Virus record (IMG/VR): IMGVR_UViG_3300045988_122351
Coordinates: 1 to 33,663 of that record
Strand: one strand, 5' to 3'
Length of the DNA: 33,663 bases
From: a virus
Lineage: Duplodnaviria > Heunggongvirae > Uroviricota > Caudoviricetes
Shown: positions 10,013-16,932 of the stretch, in pieces
How positions within the stretch are numbered: position 1 is the stretch's first letter
Layout of the letters: every line of letters starts with the position of its first letter
Notes under the pieces: generated by a model
What the model was told of the DNA's origin: nothing
Database searches by the model: none
What the model saw: only the letters and a program-made list of their open reading frames with translations
Program-made: the position numbers and the translations under genes

Positions 10013-12748
10013 TTACACCTGTGCGACGTTATACCATGTGCCATTGATGTATTTTTGTATTGGTCTGAATACTGCGGGGTCATCACCATCGACTTCACCG
10101 ACAATACCAAGCCCGGTAATTACGTGCCCTGCTTTCTCATACATCACCCCTTTCTGCATGGTCTGGACAACACGTGTGCCAAGTCTGACATCTCTCACAT
10201 AGCGGGAATCAAAGTTACCGTAATCCGAGGGATTAACACGCCCCGTAATATTTATGGTTTTATTACTTTGAACGCTTCCGGAGACAAAGCGCATAACATG
10301 GACGCTATTAGCATAAACATCCAGATTACCATCACCATTTTGTTTAAAGCCCGTGTCATTATCACCCAAAACAATCGAATTACCGCCAAGAGCACTGGAT
10401 GTTCCTATACCCAGAGCACCATTCAATTGACCACCAGATAACGGCAGTGCACCGACATCTCCCGCTGTAGGTTTTCGCGTTGTGGTATAAAACTCAGACC
10501 AGTCAGCCTCGAATCCGTAACCGTCACGAGCAGAACGATAAAAAATACCACCGTTCTTATAATTAACGCGAAACTGGGCGGCGGGACAACTTCCTTCCCC
10601 GATATTAAAATGAAGAATTAACGTTGATGCCCCACCAATAGTTGCGTTATAGGCTCCGCTACTCCAGTTCCATCCAACGGCTTTATCATTCGCAACGGTG
10701 TCTCCTGTTTTTCCTGAAGCAAATGCACCAATACTTTTCGGCGTCAGGTTAATATCTGATGTTCCATCAAACGAAACGTTATTAATTTTACGGGCTGTTT
10801 TCAGCTTTGTTGCTGTCGCCGCATTGCCGGACAGTTCACCAGAAAGGCCAGCACTGAATGTCTGTTTCGCGCCCCATGTCTGGGCTTCGTCAATGATTGG
10901 TACTCGTCTTGTTGTGATCGTGCGGCCTCCCGGATTTCCTGAAATGCGCACCATAAAAAAGCGGTAGTTGGCTTTACTTACAGTGCTGCGCCATACATGC
11001 ATTGAGCGCCCCGAACCAGAATCATCACTCGGACCGACTGAGATGTTTATCAGGTTGCCATCAATGACGCCCCAGTCCATACCGTCGGGAATGTTGGTCA
11101 TATTATCAAGCCGAACGGTTATCAGACTGCCCGGCACAAAATCGTAGGTCTGCCAGTCCAGACTGGATAGTTTTGCCACTGCGCCACCGATGCCCAGATT
11201 CAGAGGCAACGAAAAGGAGTTATATACTTCTCGCCATTCGGTCCATTTGCTCCCGGCATAGACGCGCTCAAAAGTGCGCCCCTGTGTGGTTTCTGATTTC
11301 CCTGTGGTTGTGTAACGCTGCCAGACAGATACACCATCAAAACGCCTGATTACTTCCAGTATTCCAAGCAGTGTCGCTCCAGCGGTATCCTGCATTGGAC
11401 CGTTTGACGCCTTCCCTGTAACGCTGTAAATGCCTGGCGAAGTCAGATCATTCAAATCACCTTCGTAATAACGACATTCTGACTGATGGCCTACTCTTGA
11501 CCACGGCTCCCACTGTGGGTTCTGTGCATTCCATATAGCAGAAAGGCAGCGAACATATACGTTCCCACGGCGGGTCGTATAGCGTTGCGTGCGTGAGTAC
11601 CCACCACCCTCAAGAACTTCAAGGAATCCCTGACCATAACTTCCTTCTTCCGGATAGTTGCGGTCAAATGAAGCGATAGTGCCACTACTGTTTCGCCATA
11701 AACCAAGATGCTCTGCGCCTCCTAGCGTGTTCAGGTCAATAGTTGTGCTCAGGGGGCGTGTTGCAGACTGAATCTGACGCCAGTAGATCCACGGACCGTC
11801 TGAGCCATTCCAGGTGCCAGAAAGATTACGCATATAAACATTGCCAGTTCTGGTGGTATAACGCTGCATTCCGGAAAAATTACCGCCATTGAATACCTCA
11901 AGAACACCGACTGCACCGTCTTCAGGGAAATTTTTCTCCAGTGTTGCGTTGGAGGATGTGGATTTATACCAGACACCCACATAAGCCTTAACTGGACCAA
12001 ATGTATTGAGATCAGCATCAACCGGCATTTCGCCGTTGTTTTTCATAAACGTCAGGCTGGTAACACCAATATTGTCCAGAAAAGCTGATTTATCCTGGAT
12101 ATCTGCACCGTTCTGATTTTTCGCCAGACGTGAATTTGCGTTGTCATTTGCTGCCTTGACCGCTTTTGGCGTTGCCGCCAGCTCTTCACTGGTGCTGTTT
12201 GTTGCACTGCTTAACTGAGTAAAACCTTTTTCTGTCAGCGTGGCGTCAGGATGGCGGCGGGACTGCTCATGCTCTGCGATTTTGTCATCGACGTAATCCT
12301 GCGTCGCCATCACTGTGCTGGCATCAATACTCAGCTCAACGGACGCCACGTTGCTGAGAATAATAACCATGCGGCAGGTCTGCGCACGTCCGGAGCCTTC
12401 AGCCAGTTCTGGCTTATAGCTTTCAGCCATGTTGGATACCGCAATCAGTGTTCCGGCATCGTCATACAGACCAAGCTCACGCATCCAGAAGCCGCCCACT
12501 TCGGGCGGTACAACCAGTTCAGCCACAATATAGTTTTTATTCTTATTATCCACACTGACTTTATTCAGAGCGTGACGCCAGACCTCATGCACCAGTTTCG
12601 TCTGACCGGCATCCGGCACCGGTAATTTGCCATTACCGTCACCCACGGCCATTGCAGACAGGTTTACTTTTTTCCCGCCGGGGACAGTGGCGGCTGCCAG
12701 CTTTGCGGCTCCGGCAGTAGTGATAACGGTTTTAAATTTCGTGCTCAT
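10013..12748 (-). CDS. H: Tail fiber protein H, extended variant (911 aa)
   Basis: N-terminus MSTKFKTVITTAGAAKLAAA... is P2 H-like; three tandem repeats of about 85 aa in the middle; divergent C-terminus. Confidence 0.85.
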   Translation of the reverse strand: MSTKFKTVITTAGAAKLAAATVPGGKKVNLSAMAVGDGNGKLPVPDAGQTKLVHEVWRHALNKVSVDNKNKNYIVAELVVPPEVGGFWMRELGLYDDAGTLIAVSNMAESYKPELAEGSGRAQTCRMVIILSNVASVELSIDASTVMATQDYVDDKIAEHEQSRRHPDATLTEKGFTQLSSATNSTSEELAATPKAVKAANDNANSRLAKNQNGADIQDKSAFLDNIGVTSLTFMKNNGEMPVDADLNTFGPVKAYVGVWYKSTSSNATLEKNFPEDGAVGVLEVFNGGNFSGMQRYTTRTGNVYMRNLSGTWNGSDGPWIYWRQIQSATRPLSTTIDLNTLGGAEHLGLWRNSSGTIASFDRNYPEEGSYGQGFLEVLEGGGYSRTQRYTTRRGNVYVRCLSAIWNAQNPQWEPWSRVGHQSECRYYEGDLNDLTSPGIYSVTGKASNGPMQDTAGATLLGILEVIRRFDGVSVWQRYTTTGKSETTQGRTFERVYAGSKWTEWREVYNSFSLPLNLGIGGAVAKLSSLDWQTYDFVPGSLITVRLDNMTNIPDGMDWGVIDGNLINISVGPSDDSGSGRSMHVWRSTVSKANYRFFMVRISGNPGGRTITTRRVPIIDEAQTWGAKQTFSAGLSGELSGNAATATKLKTARKINNVSFDGTSDINLTPKSIGAFASGKTGDTVANDKAVGWNWSSGAYNATIGGASTLILHFNIGEGSCPAAQFRVNYKNGGIFYRSARDGYGFEADWSEFYTTTRKPTAGDVGALPLSGGQLNGALGIGTSSALGGNSIVLGDNDTGFKQNGDGNLDVYANSVHVMRFVSGSVQSNKTINITGRVNPSDYGNFDSRYVRDVRLGTRVVQTMQKGVMYEKAGHVITGLGIVGEVDGDDPAVFRPIQKYINGTWYNVAQV

Positions 12749-14194: not shown

Positions 14195-14542
14195 TCAACT
14201 CACAGGGATGGTTAACGAAAGTGGCTGGCCGGTGTCGTTGTGCTGACCGGTTAACGTGACCGTCATTCGCCCGTCAAAACTGCGCTCAGTGGTGACGGAT
14301 GACAGGGTGACGCGGGGTTCCCATTTCAGCACCGCCATGTAACAGGCGACCTTAATCTGCAACTCAAGCGCCGGAGTCTGCGGCTGGTCAATCATTGACG
14401 CCAGCAACGAGCCGTAATCACGACGCATCACCCGCGAGCCGACCGGTGTGCGCAGGATATCGCCGATACTCTGGCTGATATGCTCAAGGTCAGTGACAGT
14501 CAGGCCATCACTGCGATTCATTCCGAGATAACGCGCAGTCAT
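14195..14542 (-). CDS. W: Baseplate protein W (115 aa)
   Basis: 115-aa ORF between V and J. Confidence 0.8.
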   Translation of the reverse strand: MTARYLGMNRSDGLTVTDLEHISQSIGDILRTPVGSRVMRRDYGSLLASMIDQPQTPALELQIKVACYMAVLKWEPRVTLSSVTTERSFDGRMTVTLTGQHNDTGQPLSLTIPVS

Positions 14543-15174
14543 AGAGGTCCCCCGGTTGTGCCGCCGCTGTCGCCGGGGTGTTTATGGGTATGCAGTACCT
14601 TACCGTTTGATGAGAGTTCACCGCCGGTGTGTTCAATGTTGCCGCGCATCGTCCCGCCCTTCTGTACTTCCAGCGTGCCGGTAATCAGTCTGTTGGTGCA
14701 GACCACCTCCGGGGTGTCCAGGGTGATGCGGGTTGACGCTTTCACCATGACTACCGGCACCGTGGCGGTAACAGAATCAGAAGCCGTCACGCTGGCCGTT
14801 TTAATTCCGCTTACCATCAGTGCACTGGTTTCAGGTTCATACTCAATCACCGCCCCGTCAGGGAAACGTATGTGCAGGGCATCCGCCGACGCAGACGGCG
14901 GAGGGTTATCGCCGGAATAAATCCCCGGCAGAACGAACGCCGTGTCGAGTTCACCGCCCACGGCCAGAATCAGCACCTGTTCCCCCACGGAAGGTGCCCA
15001 CCATGTGCGTGAACGTCCGGCACGATGGGTCAGCCACTGAAGCCAGTCGGTGCACATGCCGCCGGTCTGCACACGGCAGCGACCGGCGTTAAGGTCGGTT
15101 TCGACGATAATGCCGGGGCGTATCATGTTGCGCAGTGCGCGCGCGAGTTCCTGGATATTTGCGAGTGTTTTCAT
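14539..15174 (-). CDS. V: Baseplate spike protein V (211 aa)
   Basis: ORF 14539..15210; start set at internal Met (MKTLANIQELARALRNM...) to give 211 aa; cat at 15172..15174. Confidence 0.8.
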   Translation of the reverse strand: MKTLANIQELARALRNMIRPGIIVETDLNAGRCRVQTGGMCTDWLQWLTHRAGRSRTWWAPSVGEQVLILAVGGELDTAFVLPGIYSGDNPPPSASADALHIRFPDGAVIEYEPETSALMVSGIKTASVTASDSVTATVPVVMVKASTRITLDTPEVVCTNRLITGTLEVQKGGTMRGNIEHTGGELSSNGKVLHTHKHPGDSGGTTGGPL

Positions 15175-15307
15175 AAGATCTAGCATGCTGCTGAGAACTG
15201 ATGAGAACAATAAAAGAGTGTTTTTCTAAGGTTGACACAACACTCCATTTGAAGTGAATATAATGATTACTTAACTGGCAAAAAAACATCCTCACTAATT
15301 GGAGCCA

Positions 15308-16399
15308 ATGGATACACGCATGTCAGACATTCTAATTACTTATGATGAACGGAAAGATAAATTTGAGTCCTATGCCCTTACTCTTAAATCGTTATTAACC
15401 ACGTTAATTCGCAATGAAAAAATTTCAATTCACTCACTTGAATCAAGAGTTAAAACAAAAAAAAGCCTTGAAGGTAAGATTAATAAAAAGGGAAAATACA
15501 AGTCTATAGATGATATTACTGATATCGTTGGTATCAGGATCATCACACATTATGCTGATGATGTTGATAAGATAGCTGCTATAGTTGAAAAGGAGTTCAC
15601 CATTGACCAAGAGAACTCTATTGATAAAAGAACCTCAATTGCGCCTGATAAATTTGGTTACCTATCACTTCATTATATAGTAACTTTAAACTCAACCAGA
15701 ACAAACTTAAAAGAATATGAAGTATATAAAAACATCAAAGCCGAATTACAAATACGATCAATCCTTCAGCATGCCTGGGCGGAGATTGAACACGACATTG
15801 GTTATAAGTCGGCCACAGGACTGCCTAATGAAATAAGAAGATACTTTTCACGCTTAGCTGGTCTTTTAGAAATGGCCGATGATGAATTTATTAAAATCAG
15901 AAAAAAGATTTCTGAACGGCAGAAAGAGGTTGCAAAAGAACTAGAGCAAGGAACTAGTGATTCAGTTTTAGATATTTTCACTTTGGATGAGTTCTTAAAC
16001 ACAAGTCGAATTATGAGTGAACTTTCAGAAGAGATAAAAGAAAAAACAGGAATCACAGTACATGGCCGATACAAGGATAAAGATTTGGGATACCTACTAA
16101 ATGGTTTAAACCTAGCCAACATAACTACAATAGAACAACTCAATCAAAAACTCTCACAAATGAAAAAGCAGATCGTAGATAGAATATTCTGCTTCGGAGA
16201 ACCATTTATTAATTATTGCAGAGAAACCCCCATGCCAAAAGAAGCTCTTTTGAGTTATTTATGTCAAATTATCGTTGCGTTTCAAAACTCACCTTCGTTA
16301 GAATCTGAATTTAATAACAAAGCAGGTTTAAATCTGAAAAACAGCAATATCTCCGATTTTTTCTCGAATATAAGAGAAAACATAAGCACACAACCTTAG
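15308..16399 (+). CDS. RelA/SpoT-family nucleotidyltransferase (small alarmone synthetase-like, toxSAS), probable single-gene CapRel-like fused toxin-antitoxin (about 363 aa)
   Basis: Synthetase motifs in order: SRVKTKKSLEGKI, DIVGIRIIT, FGYLSLHY, ELQIRSILQHAWAEIEHDIGYK; about 170-aa C-terminal extension; no room for a separate antitoxin gene. Start uncertain (TTG 15299, ATG 15308, ATG 15320). Confidence 0.75.
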   Translation: MDTRMSDILITYDERKDKFESYALTLKSLLTTLIRNEKISIHSLESRVKTKKSLEGKINKKGKYKSIDDITDIVGIRIITHYADDVDKIAAIVEKEFTIDQENSIDKRTSIAPDKFGYLSLHYIVTLNSTRTNLKEYEVYKNIKAELQIRSILQHAWAEIEHDIGYKSATGLPNEIRRYFSRLAGLLEMADDEFIKIRKKISERQKEVAKELEQGTSDSVLDIFTLDEFLNTSRIMSELSEEIKEKTGITVHGRYKDKDLGYLLNGLNLANITTIEQLNQKLSQMKKQIVDRIFCFGEPFINYCRETPMPKEALLSYLCQIIVAFQNSPSLESEFNNKAGLNLKNSNISDFFSNIRENISTQP

Positions 16400-16428
16400 C
16401 TTTAGTTTTAACGTATTCTAACAGAAGA

Positions 16429-16454
16429 CTGCTGCCGGTAAGCACCGGCAGCAG
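16429..16454. terminator. Perfect 11-bp hairpin between the toxSAS gene and S, possible bidirectional terminator
   Basis: ctgctgccggt (16429..16439) pairs with accggcagcag (16444..16454), loop aagc; no strong T-run on either side. Confidence 0.4.
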
Positions 16455-16479
16455 CGATGAGGTGTCGGGAATGGCACAA

Positions 16480-16932
16480 CTAACGCTCAAGGTGAGCCAG
16501 GATAATCTCTTCAATCATCTGCACATCCTCACCGGTAAAGCCGAGCAGAGGACGCGCCGGATAATCAATTTTCTTACCGTCTTTCCGGGTTTCTTCCGAC
16601 AGACCGAACTGATGCACACTGGCGATTTTCGGTGACTTTCCGCCGTAAAACTCCATTGATGCCTGTTCTGGGCTGGCGCGGATATGCAAAAAACGACTGG
16701 TGATAAGTTTCGCAAACATTTTTCGCTTAACACGACCGGTCTTTTTTCTGGCGCTCTGCTGCTGGCGTGGTGCGTAGGGTGTGCCGTCCGGGGCTTTCTG
16801 TGCCATCACCCGGCACTGCTGACTCTGCCGCAGATGTTTCGCCAGTTCGGTGCTCAGTCGCCGACGCCCTGATGGTGACAGTGATTCAATCAGCCCGGTC
16901 AGCCGGTCTTCAAAACGCTTAAACTCATTCAT
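16480..16932 (-). CDS. S: Tail completion protein S (150 aa)
   Basis: 150-aa ORF downstream of R. Confidence 0.8.
   Translation of the reverse strand: MNEFKRFEDRLTGLIESLSPSGRRRLSTELAKHLRQSQQCRVMAQKAPDGTPYAPRQQQSARKKTGRVKRKMFAKLITSRFLHIRASPEQASMEFYGGKSPKIASVHQFGLSEETRKDGKKIDYPARPLLGFTGEDVQMIEEIILAHLER

Follow-up and report, generated by a model that had tools for sequence, protein, structure and literature searches.

Between genes V and S of a P2-like prophage lies an AT-rich moron whose product joins a small alarmone synthetase-like enzyme domain, through a long helix, to a fast-evolving, all-helical C-terminal domain that we propose to be a regulatory or sensor module specific to this protein family. 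The stretch of DNA analysed, referred to below as the window, is the 33,663-nt IMG/VR virus record IMGVR_UViG_3300045988_122351 (Caudoviricetes), and its relevant features are collected in Table 1. The explanation that we favour, although we give it slightly less than an even chance, is that the gene encodes a single-polypeptide pyrophosphokinase, triggered by phage and carried by a P2-like prophage lineage for anti-phage defence or superinfection exclusion.

The open reading frame has three possible starts (15299, 15308 and 15320) and a single end at 16399. An identical gene in E. coli S88 is annotated in RefSeq from the ATG at 15320 (WP_001280130.1, 'GTP pyrophosphokinase', 359 aa), and this start also matches the N-termini of aligned homologues, so that the start at 15308 used in the original prediction for this locus, while possible, is less likely. 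The frame is intact in 14 E. coli genomes at 98.4-99.9% DNA identity. With a GC content of 0.334, as against 0.596 for gpV and 0.532 for gpS, the gene is as AT-rich as had been claimed (33% GC versus 53-60% in its flanks), and the insert that carries it takes the place of 39 bp that phage L-413C and most E. coli P2-like prophages have at their empty S-V junction. It runs antisense to gpV and gpS, in the same S-V slot and the same orientation as the nonessential orf30 of P2, where the original prediction had placed it. The two genes are nonetheless unrelated, and DNA homology to orf30 can be ruled out, blastn aligning the flanks only. In P2 this slot extends from the terminator of the S operon to the activator site of pV; it lies outside the two well-studied P2 defence hotspots (old/tin and Z/fun), whose cargo, like the synthetase gene, consists of AT-rich morons.

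Table 1. Features in and around the V/S slot, numbered from the first nucleotide of the window.
Feature	Position	Strand	Basis
gpV, baseplate spike, left flank	14539..15174	-	RefSeq annotation of the S88 prophage; phage matches
Whole AT-rich insert, 1278 bp, GC 0.344	15177..16454		blastn breakpoints against phage L-413C
Late promoter pV activator (Ogr-type) site-like motif, TGTTGTGTCAA	15216..15243	-	P2 motif and spacing
Candidate promoter: TTGACA (15232-15237) and TATAAT (15259-15264)	15232..15264	+	Sequence
Gene for two-domain small alarmone synthetase-like protein, 359 aa	15320..16399	+	ORF list; RefSeq start; homologue N-termini; Pfam PF04607
Other upstream starts of the synthetase gene: ATG; TTG	15308; 15299	+	
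Stop codon of the synthetase gene	16397-16399	+	
Catalytic SYNTH domain, residues 1-165	15320..15814	+	AF2 model (pLDDT 90); Foldseek; invariant residues
Key codons: D68; G-loop Y114; E142	15521-15523; 15659-15661; 15743-15745	+	
Long linker helix joining both domains, residues 166-212	15815..15955	+	DSSP helix 170-210; RelQ alignment
Fast-evolving all-alpha C-terminal domain, residues 213-359	15956..16396	+	Domain model; profile search
GC-rich hairpin (12-bp stem) in the gap where the synthetase gene and S converge	16428..16455		Terminator scan
gpS, tail completion / virion morphogenesis, right flank	16480..16932	-	RefSeq annotation; phage matches

The identity of the enzyme domain was examined by profile, residue and fold comparison. 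In the Pfam search that had been suggested as a check, RelA_SpoT (PF04607) was recovered at 76.9 bits against a curated cutoff of 27 (E 1.9e-21, residues 46-169); no further Pfam family exceeded its curated cutoff, and hence no HD hydrolase, TGS or ACT domain was detected, while TIGR00691 gave a weak match limited to the synthetase part. As judged from its sequence, the protein belongs to the RelA/SpoT homologue (RSH) superfamily, in the small alarmone synthetase class. In the AF2 model the SYNTH domain has a core of five strands preceded by an N-terminal helix. The donor-ATP and catalytic residues of S. aureus RelP, namely R78, K80, S84, K88, R91, D107, R112, Y151, E174 and H190 (PMC5794853), have equivalents at identical spacing in R43, K45, S49, K53, K56, D68, R73, Y114, E142 and H158. 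Eight of these (R43, K45, K53, D68, R73, Y114, E142 and H158) do not vary across 46 homologues, in which S49 is conserved to at least 90%; K56, present here, is neither invariant nor conserved to that level. The complete set of synthetase motifs described in the original prediction is therefore borne out, since all ten RelP residues are matched, G-loop tyrosine included, and the conserved motif residues do align with catalytic positions; the pyrophosphokinase domain is predicted to be catalytically complete and RelQ/RelP-like.

RelQ/RelP (SAS1/SAS2, YjbM/YwaC) of the Firmicutes provide the closest sequence and fold for residues ~1-210, with E-values of 1e-15 (phmmer) and 1e-18 (profile), and they are the top Foldseek matches, at a target-normalised TM of ~0.75. 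The shared features comprise the ATP-binding and catalytic residue set with the G-loop tyrosine and, in the AF2 model, the N-terminal and long C-terminal helices of the RelQ/RelP tetramer. Identity to RelQ/RelP is, however, only 24-28%, and the NCBIfam equivalog for YjbM (GTPPhKinYjbM) scores 73.8 bits, far below its cutoff of 320. RelQ/RelP are, moreover, single-domain proteins of ~210-230 aa without the ~150-aa extra domain of this 359-aa protein, and they are core genes, whereas the present gene is patchily distributed and carried on mobile elements. The similarity to RelQ/RelP would suit a benign signalling role just as well as a role in defence.

The literature consulted (PMC11782079, PMC5794853, PMC12691689) yielded no sequence rule for acceptor specificity, whether G, A or tRNA. 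A basic patch for the acceptor phosphate is present in all alarmone synthetases and reduced in the tRNA-modifying FaRel2 (PMC11782079); basic residues are retained here beside the G-loop tyrosine, in the block DKR...PD(K/R)FGYLSLHY, which we infer to be equivalent to that patch. Because of these retained residues and the similarity to RelQ/RelP, the evidence leans towards a nucleotide acceptor over tRNA.

The SYNTH domain continues into a linker helix of 41 residues (DSSP 170-210 in the AF2 model), over which mean family identity is 50%. The alignment with RelQ reaches approximately residue 210, and the linker is the counterpart of the C-terminal helix through which RelQ/RelP oligomerise. Beyond it, the C-terminal domain is modelled with high confidence (pLDDT 94.5) as nine helices, and a search for structural relatives in the PDB returned none. 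The C-terminal extension noted in the original prediction is thus present, at ~150 aa and so close to the ~170 aa claimed for it. The domain is mildly acidic, with a pI of 4.84 (family median 5.25, range 4.3-9.6).

Mean pairwise identity falls from 59.6% in the catalytic domain to 22.5% in the C-domain. Among P2-like prophages, the catalytic domain is 61-79% identical and so diverges at much the same pace as the proteins W, V and R that flank it (54-82%), and in these same orthologues identity in the C-domain falls to 25-52%. By these comparisons the C-domain evolves about three times faster than the enzyme domain. A profile search of 1.84e9 proteins found the C-domain only in the ~350-380-aa architecture or in N-terminally truncated fragments. 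The short matches, which begin inside the linker helix or without an initiator methionine, are best read as truncated gene calls and not as stand-alone domains, and a split or bicistronic version of the C-domain was rejected accordingly. A sensor module shared with other effectors was likewise rejected, as none occurred among 912 matches; two giant repeat proteins were dismissed, since their many matches were each to one 30-residue stretch only.

A conserved enzyme fused to a variable C-terminus recalls CapRel, a fused sensor and toxSAS (Zhang et al. 2022, PMC9712102), and the original prediction had assigned the gene to this type. The layout does agree: CapRel SJ46 (373 aa, against 359 aa here) is likewise a prophage-borne single polypeptide in which a synthetase-fold enzyme at the N-terminus precedes a variable C-terminal domain, and in both proteins the C-terminus is least conserved. 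A CapRel-type mechanism would have the C-domain act as an in-cis antitoxin on the ATP site until displaced by a capsid or structural protein, after which the 3' CCA of tRNA would be pyrophosphorylated and translation would stop. Such a mechanism would be in keeping with the single frame without a partner, the disparity in conservation between the two domains, the prophage location, the conserved G-loop tyrosine and, in this particular protein, a basic N-domain (pI 8.97). The family median for the N-domain is, however, 6.2 and the domain is not consistently basic, so that a basic tRNA-binding surface is not conserved, and the basic residues flanking the G-loop are kept, as in synthetases that use nucleotides; the acceptor in CapRel is tRNA, whereas here it is likely to be a nucleotide. 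Family membership itself was judged from phmmer, profile and Foldseek scores, and by each of these the match to CapRel SJ46 (7ztb) is distant when set against that to RelQ/RelP, at E 0.2 for a single sequence (phmmer), 8e-3 for a profile and, in Foldseek, rank 40 with a TM of 0.37. In CapRel, the C-terminal region forms a pseudo-zinc-finger domain (pseudo-ZFD), consisting of a three-stranded beta sheet and a helix and homologous to the ATcapRel/ATphRel antitoxins, and has a conserved YXXY motif that docks on the ATP site. The all-helical C-domain has neither, the sole Y..Y in the protein (YEVY, residues 133-136) being within the catalytic domain. We therefore reject membership of the CapRel family on sequence, profile, fold and motif grounds, while the architectural part of the earlier claim, a single frame with a conserved enzyme and a variable C-terminus, stands. 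The protein appears to be related to, but clearly distinct from, the CapRel system, and we regard a CapRel-type mechanism as decidedly unlikely.

The original prediction had also described a single gene with no neighbouring antitoxin, and ORF, Rfam, repeat and neighbourhood searches for a hidden partner all led us to reject one. The insert, flanked directly by gpV and gpS, contains neither a second credible ORF nor an Rfam family (the sole match, mir-651, scores 29 bits where the gathering score is 106, and is spurious) nor a repeat array, ToxI-like arrays included. No neighbour is conserved among 77 loci from all phyla, no partner family recurs among the 148 neighbouring proteins of 27 loci, and the length of the family proteins is uniform (~350-385 aa). 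This separates the family from PhRel (Gp29-Gp30) of mycobacteriophage Phrann, a prophage synthetase-fold protein implicated, as proposed here, in superinfection exclusion (Jimmy et al. 2020, PMC7229694), and from other bicistronic toxSAS pairs, which have a separate antitoxin where this family has neither a conserved neighbour nor a split C-domain.

A separate activator, the nucleoid protein Pag1A, is needed in PANGU, whose Pag1B/GRel protein has a toxSYNTH domain connected by a helical linker to a C-domain, makes (pp)pGpp and not tRNA-PP, and aborts infection; by itself Pag1B is an inactive homotetramer, its isolated SYNTH domain is inactive and the G-loop tyrosine is essential (bioRxiv 10.64898/2026.04.06.716658). 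Since Pag1B works in this way, fused autoinhibition is not the sole option for a protein of this architecture. Going by its published description, type I Pag1B has the same layout as the model predicted here, with an alpha-helical linker between toxSYNTH and the C-terminal domain. A PANGU-like protein in this slot would be an inert oligomer until its C-domain was bound by a DNA-binding protein, for instance YejK of the host or a further nucleoid protein, set free as an invading phage broke down the chromosome, whereupon (pp)pGpp synthesis would begin. Beyond the common layout, the acidic C-domain here and at the family median, the retention of the RelQ-type tetramer helices and the presence of a chromosomal YejK in E. 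coli are all consistent with this. PANGU is, however, an obligatory two-gene operon with a YejK-like Pag1A, and no such gene is found at the gpV and gpS flanks or in the 27 related loci: no NA37/YejK-like family occurs among the recurrent or listed Pfam hits of the 148 neighbours, nor is there such a partner among the 10 candidate partner ORFs tested. The range of C-domain pI across the family also argues against it, as does the hypervariability of a domain that would have to bind a conserved host protein, and the supplement to Atkinson et al. 2011 lists the extra synthetase of E. coli S88 as 'divRel' (unplaced) and not as gRel. We consider a PANGU-like mode very unlikely.

As far as sequence searches can tell, the two-domain protein represents a large uncharacterised family present in most bacterial phyla: the C-domain occurs in >900 clusters at 50% identity, and the full-length query has >4500 relatives, mostly through the shared catalytic domain. 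The PADLOC candidate PDC-S33 matches at E 9.6e-17, over the catalytic domain only (residues 26-217 against profile positions 48-237 of 349). Our literature search found no paper on PDC-S33, WP_001280130.1 or the locus accessions, and no family member described in the literature on toxSAS, on PF04607 (including PF04607 plus phage) or on P2 hotspots. Within E. coli the gene is rare and patchy, with 14 carriers among 5426 genomes (0.26%), or 14 of the 1604 that have the V-S region. The six enterobacterial homologues that were checked (44-99% identity) all lie in this V/S slot, in which orthologues have been kept across five genera. Further afield and across phyla, the family gene recurs in reverse orientation as cargo of small plasmids, of temperate phages and of defence or integrase islands. 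A Bacillus homologue has HsdR, McrBC, Abi_C and RES genes as its neighbours and a Pseudomonas homologue shares an integrase island with an AAA_15 ATPase; others are carried by a Bacteroides phage-plasmid, an M. abscessus prophage and a Vibrio inovirus, and a 3.5-kb ColE1 plasmid has one as its sole cargo gene. Neighbourhoods compared between phyla are mixed, and because many of the neighbours are ordinary metabolic genes, enrichment in defence islands is only moderate.

This distribution bears on whether the gene serves lysogenic conversion, as an extra (p)ppGpp synthetase that tunes the host stringent response and whose C-domain is a regulatory or oligomerisation module reading a host metabolite or protein; stress tolerance, persistence, virulence, and the stabilisation or timing of lysogeny could all be affected. 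Its nearest characterised relatives are indeed housekeeping (p)ppGpp synthetases, it has been part of P2-like phages for long enough to have diverged together with their tail genes, and many non-phage family members lie among ordinary chromosomal genes. Carriage need not be toxic either, because E. coli SpoT can hydrolyse (p)ppGpp and so could buffer it. A domain that reads a conserved host signal should, however, itself be conserved, and the C-domain is the fastest-evolving part of the protein, both across the family and between occupants of the same slot. Nor does the very patchy carriage in E. coli favour lysogenic conversion, and its recurrence as cargo, in phages unrelated to one another, on a minimal plasmid and within a restriction/Abi island, is a pattern typical of conflict genes. 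Taken with these points, lysogenic conversion seems to us an unlikely explanation.

If the protein is instead the phage-triggered defence enzyme that we favour, it would be made at a low level in the lysogen and held inactive, either through occlusion of the substrate site by the C-domain or in an inactive RelQ-like oligomer. A trigger supplied by an infecting phage, whether one of its proteins or some effect of the infection, would bind the variable C-domain and release the enzyme, which would then move pyrophosphate from ATP to an acceptor. Purine nucleotides are the most likely acceptors and tRNA a less likely one, so that a burst of (pp)pGpp and/or (pp)pApp would be expected to drain ATP and GTP, with growth arrest and a block to phage production (abortive infection) as the outcome. 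Overproduction of (p)ppGpp in the cytoplasm by efficient synthetases is toxic (PMC12691689).

Upstream of the gene, the TTGACA and TATAAT hexamers that the original prediction had read as the gene's own promoter elements are present, but they are separated by 21 nt, a non-canonical geometry, and a promoter scan made no call at this position, so a canonical sigma-70 promoter was rejected. An equal arrangement (TTGACA-21 nt-TATAGT) is found at a 69% identical Klebsiella-type locus. The reverse complement of TTGACA, moreover, forms part of the pV activator site, so that the candidate -35 overlaps the Ogr-type motif on the opposite strand; this motif, whose start lies 68 nt upstream of that of V, matches the annotated P2 site at 10239-10266 (V at 10308) in both sequence and spacing. 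Because of the overlap with the Ogr-type site of the divergent pV, the prophage's own late activator may, speculatively, silence the synthetase gene during the lytic cycle of that prophage. The non-canonical promoter geometry, together with the likelihood that an AT-rich gene in E. coli is silenced by H-NS, could also be taken to mean that the frame is an inactive remnant or a mis-annotation without function. Set against the intact frames in 14 genomes, the invariance of nearly all catalytic residues in 46 homologues, the confident models of both domains and the same-slot orthologues kept across five genera, this is scarcely credible.

Synthetase-fold immune effectors are known in two mechanistic types, CapRel with a fused sensor and tRNA as substrate, and PANGU with a separate activator and (pp)pGpp as product; the present family mixes features of both with a new sensor-candidate fold. 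A bolder version of the favoured explanation, which we hold to be doubtful though worth stating, is that these proteins are a third, independent one-protein immune switch, in which a RelQ/RelP-like synthetase is gated by a phage-sensing C-domain of novel fold under an arms race, acts through an alarmone burst and is silenced by Ogr, and that the S-V slot is a third lineage-stable P2 defence locus across the Enterobacterales. If the protein does act in defence, it would offer a tractable one-gene E. coli system that links alarmone synthesis directly to infection sensing, a means to ask whether (p)ppGpp itself is the abortive-infection effector, and a new fold for the recognition of phage triggers. 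If it is a signalling enzyme instead, it would show plainly that a prophage can reprogramme the stringent response of its host. The finding also draws attention to the S-V (orf30) slot in P2-like phages as a neglected accessory locus, whose cargo co-diverges with the phage while the putative sensor half evolves much faster.

At the other end of the insert, the GC-rich hairpin between the synthetase gene and S occupies a place equivalent to that of an annotated rho-independent terminator in P2. It is terminator-like with respect to the S operon, and it may stop the synthetase transcript as well.

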